Source: a virus
Length of the DNA stretch: 64,000 nt
Reading direction: 5' to 3' (one strand)
IMG/VR virus record: IMGVR_UViG_3300038760_000071
Location: 16,260 to 80,259 of that record
The translations under genes were made by a program, and so were the position numbers. Positions 36,378-59,092 of the stretch are shown here, in pieces; the first letter of the stretch is position 1; the number at the start of each line of letters is the position of its first letter. Under the pieces are notes generated by a model. It made no database searches. It was not told the DNA's origin and worked only from the letters and a program-made list of their open reading frames with translations.

Positions 36378-36484
36378 GAGTATATTTAGTGTCTAAGGAA
36401 AGGAACTCTGATATAATAGGTAATAGGTGTTGAACTAGCGTGTATGCCCCTTAAACTACGATAAGGAACTCTTATATAATTAAC

Positions 36485-50066: not shown

Positions 50067-50255
50067 ATGCAAATCACAGGAGACCATAATATATCCACTA
50101 AACTTAGAAATAGTATCACCGATTTACATTTGCGTGTGGCTGATAAGGTATATGAACATGTTACAGAAGAGGTTTGGTACGATACCCGTTCTAATGTTTG
50201 GCACACTGTACTGGTTAGCGTTCGAGACAGCATACGTGATGTGTTAGACAGATGA
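50067..50255 (+). CDS. Trp/Val tetrad-repeat microprotein (diverged)
   Basis: EEVWYDTRSNVW...SVRDSIRDV. Confidence 0.55.
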   Translation: MQITGDHNISTKLRNSITDLHLRVADKVYEHVTEEVWYDTRSNVWHTVLVSVRDSIRDVLDR

Positions 50256-50494
50256 AAGTAGGGAACATATATAATACAGATATGAAAGTAGGTGATATAT
50301 CTTATGAGATACGTAATAAAATGCAGGGCGAAGTGGGGTTTGAGTTGTGGGATAAGGTATTGTGCGAGGTAGGAGATGATGTATGGGATGAGGTCTGGCA
50401 AGAGGTCTGGCATGAGGTGGGGCGATCGGTGAGGTTTGGGCTAAAGGATGTGATAGATTATAATGTAGGGAACTCTAGCATAATAAGGTTATGA
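50252..50494 (+). CDS. Trp/Val tetrad-repeat microprotein
   Basis: DDVWDEVWQEVWHEV. Confidence 0.65.
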   Translation: MKVGNIYNTDMKVGDISYEIRNKMQGEVGFELWDKVLCEVGDDVWDEVWQEVWHEVGRSVRFGLKDVIDYNVGNSSIIRL

Positions 50495-50679
50495 TTTTAA
50501 AGGAGGTAAGATATAAAGTATGGAACAAAATATGGCGTAAGGTAGAGAATGAGGCTCGGCAAACGATACAGGGTAAGGTAATACACGAGCTTTGGAATGA
50601 AGTAGAGGATGCGGTAGAGTATAGCCACTACATAGCAGATACGGTAGAAGATAAGATAAGAAACTCTACCATAACATAG
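50491..50679 (+). CDS. Trp/Val tetrad-repeat microprotein
   Basis: KVWNKIWRKV; ends in a junction-motif variant (RNSTIT). Confidence 0.65.
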   Translation: MILKEVRYKVWNKIWRKVENEARQTIQGKVIHELWNEVEDAVEYSHYIADTVEDKIRNSTIT

Positions 50680-50681
50680 AT

Positions 50682-50852
50682 ATGAATTTAACTAGTATAT
50701 GGTGTGAGGTAGAGGATGAGGTAGAGGATGGGGTAGAGGAAGAGGTATGGCGTGAGGCATGGCGCGCGGTGGAGCATAAGGTATGGTATGAGGCCACTCA
50801 TGAGATGAGAAGTACGGTAAGAGATAGGGTAAGGAACTCTGATATAATATAG
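50682..50852 (+). pseudogene. Disrupted tetrad-repeat microprotein copy
   Basis: ATGAATTTAACTAG start like its paralogs, but the frame stops early; repeat units continue to the next motif. Confidence 0.5.
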
Positions 50853-50884
50853 ATATGGAATGAGGTAGAAGATGCTGTATAGAT

Positions 50885-51073
50885 ATGAATTTAGAAGAGT
50901 TTAGGTATGAGATAGGGAACAAAATACGGCACAAGTTACAGCATGCGGCTTATTATAAGTTAGTGAGTAGTATAAGGGGTGAAGTAGGGCATGAGATATC
51001 AAGCAAGGTAAGGGTTGAGGTATGGGGCAAGGTATGTAATAAGGTAGAACATGCGGTATGTAATAAGGTATAG
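50885..51073 (+). CDS. Trp/Val tetrad-repeat microprotein
   Basis: MNL start; EVWGKVCNKV. Confidence 0.65.
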   Translation: MNLEEFRYEIGNKIRHKLQHAAYYKLVSSIRGEVGHEISSKVRVEVWGKVCNKVEHAVCNKV

Positions 51074-51105
51074 CATGCGGGTTGGGCGAACAGCTTTAAC
51101 ATAAT

Positions 51106-51330
51106 ATGAGTATGGGAATAGATATGAATTTAGCTGGAGTAAGGAGAGAGTTGGTGGCCAAAGTAAGGCATGAGTTGCGGGGTGAGATAAGGAGTATGGT
51201 GAAGGATGAGGTATGGGGTGAGGTAAGAGATAACATATGGAGTGGGGTAGAGAACGAGATATGGAATGAGGTAAGGCGTAATGTATGGAACAGGGCATGG
51301 AATGAGGTGAGGAGCTCTAATATAATATAG
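51106..51330 (+). CDS. Trp/Val tetrad-repeat microprotein
   Basis: Likely start at MNL (51124); ends RSSNII within the motif. Confidence 0.65.
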   Translation: MSMGIDMNLAGVRRELVAKVRHELRGEIRSMVKDEVWGEVRDNIWSGVENEIWNEVRRNVWNRAWNEVRSSNII

Positions 51331-51332
51331 AT

Positions 51333-51527
51333 ATGAGAGTAGATCAGATATCGTATGAGCTGTGTAGTAAAATGCAGGTAGAGTTAGGGGCTAAGTTATG
51401 GGATAAAGTATTGAGTAGGGTAGAAGATGCTGTATGGAGTGAGGTATGGGTTAAGGTAGAAGATGCTGTATGGGGTGAGGTTTGGGATAAGGTAGAGCGT
51501 AAGGTAAGGAACTCTAATATAATATAG
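51333..51527 (+). CDS. Trp/Val tetrad-repeat microprotein
   Basis: N-terminus paralogous to the 50282 copy; ends RNSNII. Confidence 0.7.
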   Translation: MRVDQISYELCSKMQVELGAKLWDKVLSRVEDAVWSEVWVKVEDAVWGEVWDKVERKVRNSNII

Positions 51528-51529
51528 AT

Positions 51530-51880
51530 ATGAATTTGAATGAGATACAGTGTAAGGTGGAGGATAAGGTATGGGATGAGATCTGGGATAAGGTATGGGA
51601 TGAGATCTGGGATGAGGTAAGGGGTGAGGTAGGGGATAAGGTATGGGGTGAGATATGGGATGAAGTATGGGGTGAGGTAGAGGTTAAGGTAAGGGATGAA
51701 GTATGGGATGAAGTATGGGATGAAGTATGGGATGGGGTATATGATATCATCTGGGGTGAGGTATATGATAACATATTGAATGAGATATGGGATAAGGTAA
51801 GGTGGGGAGTAGAAGATAAGGTAAGGGGTGAGGTATTTGATAAGGTAGGGCGTAAGATAAGGAACTCTAATATAATATAG
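51530..51880 (+). CDS. Trp/Val tetrad-repeat microprotein (longest copy)
   Basis: (V/I)W(D/G)(E/K) units; ends RNSNII. Confidence 0.7.
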   Translation: MNLNEIQCKVEDKVWDEIWDKVWDEIWDEVRGEVGDKVWGEIWDEVWGEVEVKVRDEVWDEVWDEVWDGVYDIIWGEVYDNILNEIWDKVRWGVEDKVRGEVFDKVGRKIRNSNII

Positions 51881-51882
51881 AT

Positions 51883-52119
51883 ATGAATAAGGTATGGGAT
51901 AAGGTAGGGGATGAGATGGAGGATAAGATAAGGGATAAGGTAAGGGATGAGGTATGGGGTGAGGTAGAGCGTAAGGTATGGGGTGAGGTAAGGGATAAGG
52001 TAAGGTATAAAGTAAGGGATGAGGTATGGGGTGAGATAAAGTGTAAAGTATTTAATAAGGTAGAAGATGCTGTATGGGGTGAGATATGGGATGAGGTAAG
52101 GAACTCTGATATAATATAG
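51883..52119 (+). CDS. Trp/Val tetrad-repeat microprotein
   Basis: Ends RNSDII. Confidence 0.7.
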   Translation: MNKVWDKVGDEMEDKIRDKVRDEVWGEVERKVWGEVRDKVRYKVRDEVWGEIKCKVFNKVEDAVWGEIWDEVRNSDII

Positions 52120-52121
52120 AT

Positions 52122-52319
52122 ATGAATTTGAATACGAAGATAGGGTATAAGATATGGAATGAGGTAAGGCGTAATGTATGGAACAGGGCATGGAATGAGG
52201 TATGGTACGAGGTAAGGGATGAGGTAAGAGAAGAAGTATGGGGTAAGGTAAGGTATGAGGTAGGGGGTGAGGTAGGGGGTAAGGTAGAGCGTAAGATAAG
52301 GAACTCTGATATAATGTAG
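52122..52319 (+). CDS. Trp/Val tetrad-repeat microprotein
   Basis: Ends RNSDIM; shares a ~50-nt block with the 51106 copy. Confidence 0.7.
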   Translation: MNLNTKIGYKIWNEVRRNVWNRAWNEVWYEVRDEVREEVWGKVRYEVGGEVGGKVERKIRNSDIM

Positions 52320-52321
52320 AT

Positions 52322-52471
52322 ATGAATTTGAATGAGGTAGGGAGTGAGGTATGGGGTGAGGTAGAGCGTAAGGTAAGGGATAAGGTAGAAGATGCTGTAT
52401 GGGGTGAGATATGGGATAAGGTAAGGGATAAGGTAAGGTATAAGATAGGTAACACTGATATATCGATATAA
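52322..52471 (+). CDS. Trp/Val tetrad-repeat microprotein (49 aa)
   Basis: MNLNEVGSEVWGEVERKVRDKV...; below the ORF-track cutoff. Confidence 0.6.
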   Translation: MNLNEVGSEVWGEVERKVRDKVEDAVWGEIWDKVRDKVRYKIGNTDISI

Positions 52472-52673
52472 ATTTGAATACGAAGATAGGGTATGGGGTA
52501 TGTAATAAGGTAGAGTTTAGTAAAGTTATAGTAAATTTATAAAAACGTATAATAATGGTGGATGGTTAAGAGATGGCTAAGTTATTAACTATAAACATGC
52601 TATAACTAAAAGGTGAGGTGTATAAATGTTTAAATACAGAAATAGTTAGAGATCATCTAAATATAAATAGAGT

Positions 52674-53354
52674 ATGAAAAAATATGTAAGAAGATACCCG
52701 ACAAAATACCGATATAATCAAATGGGATTATCGAAAGAGACAGGCTATTTTAAATACGTGGATGTTAATATATGTGCTGGATGCGCGGTAGCGAGCGCGT
52801 GTCAATCTCTATTAGATGTGCGTGGATACAATGCAATAGGTGACTATGCTCTAGGAATATATGAGCGCGCGAAGAAAGCGATCGGATCTCAGAGAACCGG
52901 TCTTCGAATATATCCCGCAGTGACTGAAGCAATATATACATTCAATGAAGAGAAGCGATATATAGATATTACAGCTACTAAGTTGGCGCCGCGAAGTAAG
53001 TCTCTGAGAGATCATCTACTCAATAATGGCACCGCGGTCGCTGGATTCCGATGGTATGAAGGTATGATGTATCCTACACCTATTATCCCACCAAATACTC
53101 CATGGTATCGTCGTATATGGTACCATCTCAGAGCCCCACGATATGCATCAGCCTCCGGAGACATTGCAGGTTATCATGCAGCAGCCGTGATGGGTGTAGA
53201 TGATCATAAGCAAGCATTTGTAATACAGAACTCATACGGGTTAGGCTACGGTAATAAAGGCAATGTCTATATGAAGTATGATGACTTCGACGCATCATGC
53301 GTCCAAGCTTATGGTTTTGACACTGTGGAGGAAAGAAAAGGAACTCTGATATAA
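52674..53354 (+). CDS. Papain-like (C1) cysteine peptidase
   Basis: CAGCAVA, YHAAAVMG and IQNSYG catalytic motifs; TATAAATA upstream; ends KGTLI within the motif. Confidence 0.8.
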   Translation: MKKYVRRYPTKYRYNQMGLSKETGYFKYVDVNICAGCAVASACQSLLDVRGYNAIGDYALGIYERAKKAIGSQRTGLRIYPAVTEAIYTFNEEKRYIDITATKLAPRSKSLRDHLLNNGTAVAGFRWYEGMMYPTPIIPPNTPWYRRIWYHLRAPRYASASGDIAGYHAAAVMGVDDHKQAFVIQNSYGLGYGNKGNVYMKYDDFDASCVQAYGFDTVEERKGTLI

Positions 53355-53361
53355 TATAGAT

Positions 53362-54039
53362 ATGATGAAACAGAAAGCTCCGATACTAAGCGCGGTTACC
53401 GCGCCGCGGCGATGGGTGACGAGGAATAATCTCAAACTAAATATGAATCGTCTAGCAGTGTTGTTGTTTTTTGCAACATTCGCTAACCAGTGGTCGATCG
53501 GTCAATCAGTTAAACTGGCTTGGGACGCTAGCGAAGATGAACGTGTAACAAGCTACCAAGTGAGGTATGGCACTTCAAGTAGCGTCCATCCATCGATGGT
53601 CGACGTGGGGAAAAACACCACAGCAACCATTACGGGCTTATCCTTCAGTGTTGATTACTACTTTGTGGTGTATGCTCTCACCGCTTCAGGCCTGATAAGC
53701 CTACCGTCTAACGAAGTCTATACCATCGTAGAGCCGCCGCCTTCATCGCGCGCCTATATAGGCTATCATATACGGATTCAGACGTCAGGGGAGTTTGAAC
53801 TCCAGCAGTCTGTAGACATGGTTAACTGGATTACGGTAAAGCAGGCAAGTGACTATTTGGATATAGTGATTCCAACCTCAGGTGTACACCGATCCTTTTA
53901 CCGAGTCACGCCATGGAACGGAGAAACTCTCTTCGAAGGTAGGTCATTTTACATTAACCAAACTAACTCGAGTGTAGACGATCATAAGCAAGCATTTGTA
54001 ATTCAGAACTCATACGGCTTCGACACAAAGGAACTCTGA
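53362..54039 (+). CDS. Secreted fibronectin type III domain protein
   Basis: VKLAWDAS...YQVRYGT...TITGL...YYFVVYA...SLPSNEV. Confidence 0.8.
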   Translation: MMKQKAPILSAVTAPRRWVTRNNLKLNMNRLAVLLFFATFANQWSIGQSVKLAWDASEDERVTSYQVRYGTSSSVHPSMVDVGKNTTATITGLSFSVDYYFVVYALTASGLISLPSNEVYTIVEPPPSSRAYIGYHIRIQTSGEFELQQSVDMVNWITVKQASDYLDIVIPTSGVHRSFYRVTPWNGETLFEGRSFYINQTNSSVDDHKQAFVIQNSYGFDTKEL

Positions 54040-54051
54040 TATAATATAGAT

Positions 54052-54384
54052 ATGAAAGCAACCGGTGCACGTTTTAAAGTACGGCATAAATTATGGAATA
54101 GGGTCAGGGGATCGATACAGAGTGGTGTGTGGGAAGAGGTAAAGAAGGCCGTCCAGGACCTGGTACATAATAGAATACCGAACAAGGTTCAGAACAAGGT
54201 ACAGAATAAAGGCCATAATGAGATATATCATGATGTAGAAGATGATGTATGGAATAAGGTATATAAGAGGGTAGAAGATAAGGTATGGAATAATGTATGG
54301 AATAAGCTACATAATACTGGAATAGCCTCAACGAAAAAGGCACTCAAAAGGAACTCTGATATAATAGATATACAGAAGAGATAA
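54052..54384 (+). CDS. Tetrad-repeat protein (outlying paralog)
   Basis: DDVWNKVYKRVEDKVWNNVWNKL. Confidence 0.6.
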   Translation: MKATGARFKVRHKLWNRVRGSIQSGVWEEVKKAVQDLVHNRIPNKVQNKVQNKGHNEIYHDVEDDVWNKVYKRVEDKVWNNVWNKLHNTGIASTKKALKRNSDIIDIQKR

Positions 54385-54422: not shown

Positions 54423-54773
54423 ATGAGCAACCAACCTAACAAAACACCTGGCGTTATTCTACACGGTGAAGCAATGATCTTCCAATCTCCCATTCCAGAA
54501 GGAGCTACAGAGATCAAATCATCCTCCACTAATATGCACATCATTGCAGATTCTGAGACTACCGGTAACCACCACGTTATCGATACTGTGCCAGGTACTA
54601 AGTACTTTAAACACGGTGATACAATGTACATGGAGAACACAAATGAGACCCGTGTGAGGTGCGTTCTAGCTGATCGTCACGATGCTATTACACTTGATCC
54701 TGGTACGTGGGAGTTTGGAATTCAAAAAGAATTTGATCATCTAACTCAACAGTTACATAATGTAGCTGACTGA
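54423..54773 (+). CDS. Small beta protein of the QGDV/HGE...TGHxH type
   Basis: LHGEAMI, ADSETTGNHHVI, HDAITLDPGTW..QKEFD and VAD C-terminus. Confidence 0.6.
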   Translation: MSNQPNKTPGVILHGEAMIFQSPIPEGATEIKSSSTNMHIIADSETTGNHHVIDTVPGTKYFKHGDTMYMENTNETRVRCVLADRHDAITLDPGTWEFGIQKEFDHLTQQLHNVAD

Positions 54774-54780
54774 ATTAACC

Positions 54781-54854
54781 GCGGGTATAGCTTAATGGTA
54801 AAGCTGCAGCCTTCCAAGCTGACTATGTGAGTTCGATCCTCTCTACCCGCTCCA
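54781..54854 (+). tRNA. tRNA-Gly(TCC)
   Basis: GCGGGTA acceptor stem, CTTCCAA anticodon loop, GTTCGAT T-loop, CCA. Confidence 0.9.
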
Positions 54855-55352: not shown

Positions 55353-55640
55353 ATGGATAGCGAACTCGAACTGTGCTACAAGTCAACAACATTCTGTGAT
55401 GGTAATGGAGGTAGGTGTCTAAAGTTTAAAACATGCCCGCTAGCGCTAACAGATGATGTGCGTCAGAAAGCTGACCGCTGGTGGGTGGCTAATGGTGATT
55501 CTATAGATGAAGATGTTCCTTTAGCAATTTTTAATGCTCCGCGGAAGTTGGATTGTTATGAGCCGCCTATTAAAGTGCCGGTGCCGGCACCATCCGATGA
55601 AGCTGATGACTCGAACACTGAGAAAGGAACTCTCATATAA
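55353..55640 (+). CDS. Cys-rich hypothetical protein
   Basis: TAAATA upstream; ends KGTLI within the motif. Confidence 0.55.
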   Translation: MDSELELCYKSTTFCDGNGGRCLKFKTCPLALTDDVRQKADRWWVANGDSIDEDVPLAIFNAPRKLDCYEPPIKVPVPAPSDEADDSNTEKGTLI

Positions 55641-55676: not shown

Positions 55677-56645
55677 ATGAAAAAGATTACTAAAATGACC
55701 GAGGAGGAGCATGCGAAAATGCCTGAGTATGTAGAGAAGTGGATCAAGATCGGGACTGATACTACCCGGCTGGATCCAGCTACCACGGAGAAGATTGTTA
55801 ATAACATTCGAAACCTGATTGATATGGAGCCGGGTGTACCGTGTTTGATTGTCGATAACCCTATTGAGGCTTGGGTAATGTCATACCTATCTCTTAAGCA
55901 AGGTGTGGCTATAGAGGATTTACATTCTGAGATGGTAAGTATCTTTAATGGTAACCCGAAGAAGTACGACGTCCCACGATGTGAACTTCCATGGATGACT
56001 GGATCGTTCTTTGCCTCTACGTTTGCCTTTTACGACTTTATGATTGAAGAGCTTGGTGTAGAGTTAGAGAAAGAGCTCTGGACAAAGTATAAGATATGGG
56101 AAGCTTCGTCCTGTCTTGGGTGTGTATATCCTCTAGATAGTTGTACGATCGTTAGTCAAAAGCCTAAGACCGTCTTCCTACAAGATGGCAAGCTTCATAA
56201 GGACGGTGAGCCAGCTCTAACATATGATGGTTTAGGTGAGTTAGTGATCTGGTCGTTAAATGGTGTTGAGGTACCGGAGTGGCTCGCTAAGACGTCCGCG
56301 CAGGATCTTACACTAGATGATTATAGCAAACTAGATAACGCGGACGTTAAAGCTGAGTTCGTACGTAAGGTTGGTATTGAGCGCTTTATTGATCAGGGTA
56401 AGATAGTCGATTCATTCAACGAGTATGATATTGCTACTCATGAGTGGTGGCACAAGTCTGAGTACGAGCTCGTAGATATGAACTCGTTGTTTAGTACATT
56501 AGACTACGCACCATATCTTAAGATGGTTAATCAGACAACTGGCATTTTCCATATGGAGGGTGTGTCGCCATCATGTCGAACAGTTGGTGAAGCTCTTAAA
56601 GAGCGCTTCGGTGGTAAGGATTTCGTTATCAACTCAATCGCCTAA
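55677..56645 (+). CDS. DUF6745-like protein
   Basis: W...G...AFYDF, CVYPLD...VSQKP...GKLHKDGEPAL.Y...WSLNGVEVP and NADVK..IGIERF motifs. Confidence 0.7.
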   Translation: MKKITKMTEEEHAKMPEYVEKWIKIGTDTTRLDPATTEKIVNNIRNLIDMEPGVPCLIVDNPIEAWVMSYLSLKQGVAIEDLHSEMVSIFNGNPKKYDVPRCELPWMTGSFFASTFAFYDFMIEELGVELEKELWTKYKIWEASSCLGCVYPLDSCTIVSQKPKTVFLQDGKLHKDGEPALTYDGLGELVIWSLNGVEVPEWLAKTSAQDLTLDDYSKLDNADVKAEFVRKVGIERFIDQGKIVDSFNEYDIATHEWWHKSEYELVDMNSLFSTLDYAPYLKMVNQTTGIFHMEGVSPSCRTVGEALKERFGGKDFVINSIA

Positions 56646-57670: not shown

Positions 57671-58030
57671 ATGAAGACATATAGCAATTTAGGAGATCCA
57701 AATGTAGTCGTTATTAACATTACTATTTTGGAGGTATATAAACACCTCGCGGCAGCTCTATTCGATATGGGGGTTGACGGCGGAGGAAGCCTCTTCGGCA
57801 AACATCTAGCAGAATGTTATGAGGGACTTAAGTCGCTACCAGATCTAGAGAACGAGGAGTTGACCGAGGCTAGCGAAAAAGCGAGAGGGCGCGTTCGTAA
57901 GTTGTTTACTGATGGTAATACAATGCTAATGATTCCCAATTGGGATGAGTCGTGTAAAACAGAGCTTCGTATTACTAATTCAAAAGGAGTTTCAGTGTTA
58001 GTATTAGTAGATGGAGAACTTAATTGTTAA
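57671..58030 (+). CDS. Hypothetical early protein
   Basis: Starts at a junction motif. Confidence 0.6.
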   Translation: MKTYSNLGDPNVVVINITILEVYKHLAAALFDMGVDGGGSLFGKHLAECYEGLKSLPDLENEELTEASEKARGRVRKLFTDGNTMLMIPNWDESCKTELRITNSKGVSVLVLVDGELNC

Positions 58031-58322
58031 CATGGATCGCCCTAACGAGATACTCAACCCGATTATCCGAGAGATAGCTGAATATTATGAGATGTCCATC
58101 GGGTGGGATAAGTCTCAAGACTCAGCCTGGTTGAGATGCACCATCACACATGAGGATATGGGTAAGCATTTCTACTGGACTAGTGATGGTAGATGTAGTA
58201 GTAGGAGATCGTTTGAGCTGTTTATGGACAAGCTTCAAGAGTTCTTTATCGAAGTTGGGGAAGAATTCAGCCCCGTGGGGCTGATCAGCCCCGTGCCGAA
58301 AGACACCGGCGCGCCGTGGTAG
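58011..58322 (+). CDS. Hypothetical protein
   Basis: Co-directional ORF. Confidence 0.5.
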   Translation: MENLIVNMDRPNEILNPIIREIAEYYEMSIGWDKSQDSAWLRCTITHEDMGKHFYWTSDGRCSSRRSFELFMDKLQEFFIEVGEEFSPVGLISPVPKDTGAPW

Positions 58323-58350
58323 GGAAAAGGAAACCTGATATAATATTATT

Positions 58351-58512
58351 ATGGAAGAAATTAAAAAAGAATTGTTTGATAAGATGAGTTATGATGTTAG
58401 TAATGGATTTGGAAGGAAGGAGTTGAAGGAATGGTATGGAGAGGAGAATGTTAAGTTGTATTTAGAATATGGGAAGAAGAAGGATTTGTTTGAAGGTGAG
58501 TTGGAGGGGTAG
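58351..58512 (+). CDS. 53-aa early protein encoded without any cytosine
   Basis: MEEIKKELFDKMSYDVSNGFGRKELKEWYGEENVKLYLEYGKKKDLFEGELEG; starts at a junction motif. Confidence 0.7.
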   Translation: MEEIKKELFDKMSYDVSNGFGRKELKEWYGEENVKLYLEYGKKKDLFEGELEG

Positions 58513-58544
58513 GTTTTAAAAAGGAAATCTGATATAATAATAGT

Positions 58545-58811
58545 ATGCAAGTAATTAATAAAGAAAGTAAGATGAAAGAAGTAGTTGTTGTTGGATATGA
58601 GGAGATTGGATTCGAGTTTAGTTTATGTGATGAGTTATATGAAGATGGGTGTGGAAAAGATATTGAAGGTAGGTTTTTAGATGTAGAATTTTTAAAGATT
58701 ATGTTTGACAGTAGGTTGGAGAATGAAGAGGATACATCTAAAATTGATAAGATTGATGATATGTTAGTAAGTATTAAGGATTTGAATAATGAAGTGTTAG
58801 TTGAGTTTTAA
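58545..58811 (+). CDS. Acidic early protein, C-depleted gene
   Basis: Starts at a junction motif; 5 C in 267 nt by manual count. Confidence 0.7.
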   Translation: MQVINKESKMKEVVVVGYEEIGFEFSLCDELYEDGCGKDIEGRFLDVEFLKIMFDSRLENEEDTSKIDKIDDMLVSIKDLNNEVLVEF

Positions 58812-58891
58812 TAAGTAAGGGGGAGGAGTTCCGAAAGGAACGAACCGGGGGGAGTTAGTTAAAAAGGAAACCTGATATAATAAATAATAGT

Positions 58892-59092
58892 ATGAAAGTA
58901 ATTAATAAAGAAAGTAAGATGAAGAGAGAAGAAGTTGTTAAGTTGGTTGAAGATTGTAATAAGAAGTTGAGAGAGTTGCGTAAGTTGTATATGAATGATT
59001 TTTTAGATGATGAAGGAGATGAGATTGTTGAGAACTTTTTTTATGAAGTGAGGGATTTGGTTGAGGAGGATTGGGCTTCAGAGGATTATTAG
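58892..59092 (+). CDS. Acidic early protein, C-depleted gene; paralog of 63144-63389
   Basis: 4 C in 201 nt by manual count; DCNKKLRELRKLYMNDFLDDEGD. Confidence 0.7.
   Translation: MKVINKESKMKREEVVKLVEDCNKKLRELRKLYMNDFLDDEGDEIVENFFYEVRDLVEEDWASEDY

Follow-up and report, generated by a model that had tools for sequence, protein, structure and literature searches.

We analyzed a 64,000-nucleotide stretch of viral DNA, hereafter the window, in which a preliminary description had singled out an array of Trp-rich mini-genes. The window covers bases 16260-80259 of an 80,259 bp IMG/VR record (CheckV completeness 38%) and belongs to an uncultured marine T4-like phage. The mini-proteins are relatives of the internal repeat tract of DUF6745 (PF20530) proteins rather than members of the domain family, and their genes adjoin a DUF6745-type core gene that lacks this tract. 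Our confidence is high that homology to the tract, coding status and linkage to the core hold jointly. With less confidence, we consider it probable that the array consists of detached, diversifying versions of the tract working in trans with the repeat-less core.

The link to DUF6745 comes from a search of 1.84 billion representative proteins with a profile built from 17 mini-proteins. There were 741 matches with an E-value of 1e-3 or better and 105 at 1e-10 or better (best E 5e-49). Most of the best matches (132/150) are proteins of 300-700 aa, in which a fused tetrad tract begins near residue 75 and has a median length of 160 aa (range 88-328). PF20530 lies downstream of the tract in eight of the ten top matches scanned. 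Tetrad residue use in the fused proteins matches that of the window. At position 2 the fused proteins have R.25, W.21, G.18 and E.09, and the window W.35, R.23, E.16 and G.08; at position 3 the values are D.34, A.17 and N.13 against D.32, N.19 and G.15; at position 4 they are Q.35, S.22 and E.12 against E.39 and K.32. A Pfam scan of the mini-proteins (49-116 aa) returned no DUF6745 match, and a literature search found no paper mentioning DUF6745.

The DUF6745 tract (PF20530; phrog_31813) thus resembles the window repeat in its period of four, with V/I, then W/R/G/E, then D/A/N/S/G and a polar position 4, in its strong profile matches and in its neighbourhood with a partner gene carrying HGE/TGNHH motifs. 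It differs in that the window tract is split into 12 separate genes beside a core without a tract. Each window copy also begins with an N-terminal cap (MNL...), and a promoter-like signal precedes most of them.

The core matches phrog_31813 with an E-value of 1.6e-12. It has no Pfam match at E 1 or better, and the DUF6745 model gave no score on the window's record. Its orthologue in a related phage record, G001, is 48% identical and scores exactly at the PF20530 cut-off of 27.0 bits. The core is 34% identical to the fused protein P0003 over both flanks, and it aligns with fused proteins at the N-terminus (LTxEQ..KW..GL.T...D, ..SPIEAW) and again from the FYDF helix on. Between the aligned flanks it has only about 30 non-repeat residues. 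The place at which fused homologues insert their tract corresponds to core residues ~75 to ~109.

The small partner protein encoded near the core is 45% identical to the product of the syntenic G001 gene. The partner adjoins the core in G006, G007, G009 and G010 and in bacterial loci L116-L118 and L121. Bacterial genomes, too, have fused genes with an adjacent partner: one from the Dehalococcoidia carries three to four paralogues next to genes of phage type, and a second example comes from the Alphaproteobacteria. Searches with the partner found no PDB relative, no PHROG and only unnamed viral clusters in Atlas.

Free and fused tracts are distributed consistently: in 7/7 phage records, free arrays accompany repeat-less cores and fused cores come without free copies. 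A repeat-less core, an adjacent partner and neighbouring free tetrad genes are found in five records, namely G000 (the record of the window), G001, G006, G009 and G010. The free copies number 12 in G000, at least 10 in an operon plus 3 dispersed in G001, 22 profile matches in G006 (a complete 47-kb genome), 7 in G009 and 2 in G010. The G001 array has one promoter for about ten genes. In G008 and in the complete genome G007, the core gene itself contains the tract and accounts for all profile matches. These records were reached by different routes: G001 via the promoter motif described below, G009 and G010 via the DUF6745 neighbour, and G006 via a fused homologue. A search for relatives with the peptidase-like neighbour at 52674-53354 gave no match.

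The array comprises 12 intact plus-strand open reading frames (ORFs) of 49-116 aa, eleven of them back to back at 50067-52471 and the twelfth at 54052-54384 (Table 1). The ORFs are made of 12-nt units encoding (V/I)-(W/R/E/G)-(D/N/G)-(E/K), read in the frame that each ATG opens. According to Tandem Repeats Finder, the period is 12, with 39.6 copies across 51562-52035. V/I residues form 122 pairs at lag 4, whereas 1000 shuffles averaged 38 and never exceeded 55. The pairs peak only at lags 4 and 8 (122 and 113), with 13 and 8 at lags 5 and 7, unlike the five-residue period of pentapeptide-repeat proteins or the seven-residue (3.5) period of heptad coiled coils. The entropy of position 1 in the window is 0.76 bits. 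Mini-gene 1, left out of the profile alignment, is nevertheless recovered by the family profile (E 4.1e-7), and the sequence of mini-gene 2 is also found as protein-library representative P0082. Searching the 80-kb record with the family profile gave no match outside the 12-gene span and no further copy.

Much of the preliminary description survives this analysis. The array of 49-116-aa ORFs in 12-nt units is as described, and the copy outside the array at 54052 is intact and matches the profile. Blocks are indeed common to non-adjacent copies: IWNEVRRNVWNRAWNEV occurs in both 51106-51330 and 52122-52319, and MKVGDISYE, MRVDQISYE and several VEDAVWGE blocks are present. The term Trp-rich needs qualifying, with Trp making up 2-11% of mini-protein residues. 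The copy at 50682 had been called disrupted, but the ORF at 50682-50852 is intact; the disrupted cassette is 50833-50884, and there is a second dead copy at 52460-52520. These two remnants accompany the intact mini-genes.

Table 1. Features of the array and its neighbourhood, in window coordinates
Feature	Position	Strand	Description
Mini-gene 1	50067-50255	+	62 aa; divergent; no upstream promoter motif; stop overlaps next start
Mini-gene 2	50252-50494	+	80 aa; alternative start at 50282 behind a -10-like TATAAT
Mini-gene 3	50491-50679	+	62 aa; variant junction GGAACTCTAGCATAATA upstream
Mini-gene 4	50682-50852	+	56 aa; net charge -8; degenerate junction CATAACATAG upstream
Dead cassette	50833-50884	+	perfect junction, then ATG GAA TGA and an out-of-frame WNEVEDAV-block fragment
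Mini-gene 5	50885-51073	+	62 aa; without full promoter motif
Mini-gene 6	51106-51330	+	74 aa; MNL start at 51124; contains block IWNEVRRNVWNRAWNEV
Mini-gene 7	51333-51527	+	64 aa; N-terminus paralogous to mini-gene 2
Mini-gene 8	51530-51880	+	116 aa; 13 Trp; net charge -18; longest, most regular tetrad tract; 2.6% cytosine
Mini-gene 9	51883-52119	+	78 aa
Mini-gene 10	52122-52319	+	65 aa; block IWNEVRRNVWNRAWNEV common to mini-gene 6
Mini-gene 11	52322-52471	+	49 aa; last intact array copy
Decayed copy	52460-52520	+	87% identical to mini-gene 10 start; ATG changed to ATA
Mini-gene 12	54052-54384	+	110 aa; net charge +12; outside array; perfect junction upstream
Small partner protein	54423-54773	+	116 aa; motifs HGE ... 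TGNHHV
DUF6745-type core	55677-56645	+	322 aa; N- and C-terminal parts of the family, without tetrad tract
Example junction	52100-52124	+	GGAACTCTGATATAATA-TAGAT-ATG; stops in three frames; extended -10 TGnTATAAT; ATG 6 nt after -10
Other junction copies in array stretch	starts 50469, 50833, 51311, 51508, 51861, 52300, 53340, 54030, 54350	+	

An open frame by itself is weak proof of coding here, because the consensus tetrad unit has no stop in two of the sense frames or in any antisense frame. Stronger evidence comes from the relatives. Arrays of ORFs encoding 43-110 aa are present in G001, G006, G009 and G010, and in all four the tetrad pattern is the same while the codons differ. Valine at position 1 is GTA in the window phage, GTC in G001 and G006, and GTG in G009; arginine is AGG, AGA or CGG depending on the phage; and position 4 is E/K (GAG/AAG), N (AAT), Q (CAA) or K/E (AAA/GAA). 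The V / W-R-G / D-N pattern is retained in all phage arrays despite the differing codons. Across phages the entropy is 0.4-0.9 bits at position 1 and 2.1-3.5 bits at positions 2 and 3. A start of the form MN(I/L/F)... is also conserved, and neighbouring proteins of these phages are only 35-50% identical. ATGA overlaps chain the array genes in G001 and G006, and the conserved C-terminal codons of G006 include a GGAG ahead of the next start. Because frame and residue pattern are kept in relatives using other codons, the sense mini-ORFs are, on sequence evidence, real translated genes. The same frame is also continuous with the flanking domains in hundreds of longer proteins, which argues that the sense frame is translated.

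Searches for other identities gave little. An Rfam scan found no match in the array, and scans of the mini-proteins against Pfam, PHROGs, NCBIfam and PADLOC returned weak, repeat-driven matches only. We rejected the tape-measure family phrog_1272 (E 2.6e-4), phrog_13002, GvpQ (far below cut-off) and PDC-S32 (E 0.007) as composition matches.

Structure prediction is consistent with small helical proteins. AlphaFold2 models a G001 mini-protein as one helix spanning residues 3-65 (pLDDT 92). Together with the frame and pattern kept in four other phages, this model supports the earlier proposal of translated, predicted helical mini-proteins. The AlphaFold2 model of the core (pLDDT 90, pTM 0.80) has N-terminal helices packed on the C-terminal domain, and its confidence is low at residues ~90-110, where fused proteins carry the tract. 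A VIA-align wide search with the core model reached Z 5.1 at best, over 69 residues. The only PDB match by sequence was to the EEVG-repeat region of Pfs230.

From these observations we propose the following mechanism. Each mini-gene would be transcribed separately and early, and its product would be one long amphipathic helix of (V/I)-x-x-x tetrads. The mini-proteins would join the repeat-less core and its partner in trans, with the conserved V/I stripe as the seam along which they dock or pack. Positions 2 (W/R/E/G) and 3 (D/N/G), which vary, would face outward and give every copy a surface of its own, so that one core might be made in about a dozen versions at once. The junction motif between cassettes would set the ATG at the transcription start, giving leaderless mRNAs, and could double as a recombination site at which cassettes are duplicated, deleted and shuffled while the 12-nt units slip. 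That the mini-proteins act in trans on the core is plausible, and we stop just short of calling it probable. More doubtful is protein-level combinatorial recognition, in which a constant core and partner would be loaded with exchangeable, fast-evolving helices, a dozen here and up to dozens elsewhere. At an early stage of infection, such a repertoire might give the phage many binding specificities, with variable surface or defence proteins of the host as possible targets.

The proposed timing draws on the setting of the array. Genes for a contractile-tail sheath and an intein-split T4-type large terminase lie on the minus strand, and the nearest matches of the sheath are in T4-like myoviruses of Pelagibacter, Methylophilales and Synechococcus. 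From ~36400 on, the genes of the window are small and on the plus strand. Small promoter-driven genes surround the array, across from the structural module, and this placement suggests that it acts early in infection. Public runs containing the phage sequence are seawater metagenomes, and a megablast search of 16 kb against isolated phages gave no match.

Several points weigh against reading the array as detached DUF6745 tracts that work with the core. E-values of short-repeat profiles are inflated by repetition. Convergence of a simple repeat keeps some probability, although the neighbourhood evidence argues otherwise. The helix model comes from a shallow alignment of 17 sequences, and the position-3 residues D/N/G/S are not typical helix formers. 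The core fold is without a solved relative, with nothing at E 1e-3 or better in a Foldseek search against the PDB. Among 127 fused tracts, 46 have no phase break, and a helical-hairpin test found no preferred mid-tract phase break.

The junction is the motif GGAACTCTGATATAATA-N5-ATG, present in 37 copies at ≤3 mismatches, all on the plus strand between window positions 36402 and 62706. Its core 16-mer has 16 matches compared to 0.5 expected. The motif is almost always 5 nt upstream of an ATG, and it closes ORFs in all three frames, ending them in RNSDII and a stop in the array and in KGTLI and a stop in the genes at 52674-53354 and 55353-55640. Since it ends ORFs in three frames, the junction is a DNA-level signal. 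Exactly six bases lie between TATAAT and the ATG; at the usual promoter spacing, transcription would begin at the A of this ATG, and we infer that the mini-gene mRNAs are leaderless.

The preliminary description had given most copies their own promoter motif. This holds for the seven mini-genes with a good junction and, in weaker form, for three with a degenerate one; two have none, and the motif is genome-wide rather than special to the array. It also occurs 34 nt upstream of the core gene and 56 nt upstream of the partner gene. A two-hexamer sigma-70 promoter scan did not pick up the junctions, which have no -35 hexamer. There is no terminator-like site or stem-loop between mini-genes and no inverted repeat in the 28-nt junction. 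In a subclass of junctions (45235, 45665 and 55626), a shared leader AGAGTAGAAAGAAAC... stands in place of the ATG; the core gene at 55677-56645 is among those served. The promoter-like signal therefore has leaderless and leadered forms.

Diversification of the array by repeat slippage and unequal recombination, as the preliminary description had proposed, is supported by sequence comparisons of several kinds: a 12-nt indel, a cassette deletion, a copy-number difference, mosaic blocks and the two dead remnants. Sample X4 has a 12-nt insertion at 52507, within the decayed copy at 52460-52520. In X5, a sample of another study and another seawater population, one contig runs from 50470 directly into 50662, the two sides having 13 nt in common, so that the mini-gene 3 cassette (50491-50679) is missing from junction to junction; further rearranged joints occur in X5 at low depth. 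G009 and G010, whose flanks are nearly identical, have 7 and 2 copies, respectively. Position 4 and the C-terminal tail are homogenised within each genome (RNSDII in the window phage, KQYKSIK in G001 and VRDQTMEKL in G006), which indicates concerted evolution. Joints from 50850 to 53333 in samples X3 and X4 (21-nt sides) were rejected as overlaps within the shared junction motif.

A diversity-generating retroelement (DGR) mechanism is not supported. There is no RVT_1 reverse transcriptase match in the 80-kb record, which is 38% complete, and tetrad variation involves T/A/G/C at the first codon position and is not adenine-specific.

Two library proteins, P0001 and P0002, are homologues of mini-gene 12 from other metagenomes that are fused to fragments of other genes. 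P0001 begins with a thioredoxin-like WCGPC segment, and P0002 has an ACQSLL segment resembling the peptidase-like gene at 52674-53354. These chimeras suggest that cassettes are shuffled between genes. Within the window, a 49-nt block encoding VDDHKQAFVIQNSYG occurs twice at 94% identity, at 53194-53242 in the peptidase-like gene (52674-53354) and at 53972-54020 in the C-terminal end of an FN3-domain gene (53362-54039). This repetition resembles a scar left by recombination between adjacent cassettes. In G001, a 483-aa gene between array and partner (L113:2912-4384) has ~60% G+C compared to 37% for the rest of the record; either recent uptake from a cellular genome or a chimeric assembly could explain it.

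Base composition is a further peculiarity. The coding strand of the array core (51000-52500) has 2-5% C, compared to 16-18% elsewhere, with a GC skew of +0.64. The homologous arrays of G001 (14% C) and G009 are not cytosine-depleted. A second C-poor stretch is found at window ~58000-59000. In all arrays and in the fused proteins, the commonest position-2 residues W, R and G are NGG codons, one first-position change apart and proline in antisense; mutational accessibility and selection are both candidate explanations. The mini-proteins span a net charge of -18 to +12. A tRNA gene at window 54781-54851 on the plus strand (Rfam tRNA, 62.8 bits) lies directly 3' of the partner gene at 54423-54773.

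The preliminary description took the mini-proteins for decoys, sponges or inhibitors of a host defence sensor. If they were such stand-alone effectors, the helices would act alone and the DUF6745 neighbour would reflect shared repeat ancestry only. A promoter-like signal and start for each copy would permit independent, abundant production, the wide range of net charge would suit many targets, and the mini-genes lie among small early-type genes. The copy at 54052-54384 and three G001 copies are also dispersed from their arrays. We nevertheless consider this unlikely, since the 7/7 pairing of free arrays with repeat-less cores would be unexpected were the core irrelevant. Nor did the mini-proteins have any credible match to defence or anti-defence models, the best being a candidate family at E 0.007. 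A role together with the core is the better-founded reading, because the repeat is the central tract of DUF6745 and the array adjoins a DUF6745 gene without that tract.

Improbable, in our view, is a neutral or selfish expansion in which a promoter-repeat cassette multiplies by junction recombination and slippage and most copies are functionless. In its favour, there are dead remnants at 50833-50884 and 52460-52520, three mini-genes have a degenerate junction and two have none, and a perfect junction precedes the dead cassette at 50833. Copy number also differs between close relatives (7 and 2), and a cassette is absent from another population. Yet 12/12 of the longer copies are open in the V-x-x-x frame, the sole out-of-frame fusion being a 28-nt stub, and the arrays persist in five phage records with their protein pattern kept between phages that have other codons and neighbours of 35-50% identity. 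It is very improbable that the frames are incidental to a nucleic-acid role, either of a G-rich, nearly C-free repeat acting as structured or sponge RNA or of a promoter cluster soaking up RNA polymerase. The cytosine depletion and GC skew, and seven good promoter-like motifs in 2 kb, would fit such a role. However, G001 (14% C, one promoter) and G009 (CAA and CGG codons) keep the protein pattern without these nucleotide features, no Rfam family matches the array, and the fused homologues show that the frame is translated.

We give the least weight, close to none, to an assembly artefact or to the antisense 313-aa frame (51514-52455, minus strand) as a real gene. The preliminary description had raised the possibility of an artefact unsupported by long reads. 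Three further seawater samples cover the whole stretch with short contigs, and all parts are at least 99% identical in them; independently assembled relatives have the same kind of array. No contig from another sample spans the array, and short-read assemblies break at the junction motifs, so this coverage supports the parts of the array more than the order of its cassettes. Much of the array variation (NGG codons, GTA/ATA, GAG/AAG) is synonymous in antisense (Pro, Tyr, Leu), as an antisense gene would have it. The in-register antisense reading shifts from LIPY to IIPD, LVPH and FIPD among phages, however, with 6-10 stops within the tetrad units of relatives, and all promoter motifs are on the plus strand. 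We regard the antisense frame as a by-product of the repeat.

The closest published counterpart of the junction is the promoter-early stem-loop (PeSL) cassette of T4-type phages (Arbiol et al., 2010, PMC2839356; Comeau et al., 2014, PMC4122927). There, a short regulatory motif lies between small variable early-type genes in plastic regions, and recombinational cassette shuffling has been proposed (PMC2839356, PMC4122927). The window junction likewise flanks variable small ORFs and bounds the X5 deletion from 50470 to 50662, which fits PeSL-style shuffling. It differs in lacking a -35 hexamer and a stem-loop or terminator, so that two defining parts of PeSL are absent. It is instead an extended -10 after GGAAC that abuts the start codon and carries stops in three frames.

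For the variable tetrapeptide tract, the closest published analogue in a phage is Tweety gp54. With Che8 gp57 and PMC gp51, it is one of the mycobacteriophage proteins with a 12-bp/tetrapeptide repeat (Pham et al., 2007, PMC2884959), in 48, 26 and 15 repeats, respectively. Two positions vary, including a G/W alternation, and the authors read this as selection for variation (PMC2884959). The alternation is similar to position 2 in the window. The likeness is an analogy and not homology: hhalign gave a probability of 0.1% for Tweety gp54 against DUF6745, Tweety gp54 has no Pfam match, and its repeat is A-A-(G/W/Q)-(S/Y). In the Tweety-type proteins, moreover, the repeat stays in one protein and no free-standing copies are described.

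Rhs/CdiA orphan modules and pilS cassettes also keep a variable module in many copies beside a constant part and are diversified by recombination. Such modules are swapped into the main gene as DNA and mostly lack their own expression signals. The window copies, unlike these, are complete genes with start and stop, most with a promoter-like signal, so any exchange would take place at the protein level. We found no paper on a free tetrad-array layout.

DUF6745 is a widespread, mostly phage family, and few protein segments in these genomes vary as much as its internal tract. Through the fission pattern, roughly a dozen orphan micro-genes are connected with a single core and a single partner, a three-component system with predicted binding between helix and core. 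What the window phage adds is promoter-like, apparently leaderless junctions that also bound the cassettes gained and lost in natural populations, mini-genes that are almost free of cytosine, and population evidence for one-unit (12-nt) slippage and whole-cassette deletion. If the mini-proteins do form a repertoire loaded onto the core, this would be a third route to receptor-like diversity in phages besides DGRs and cassette recombination. It would then represent a new principle of viral diversity generation and could be a source of simple helical binding modules.

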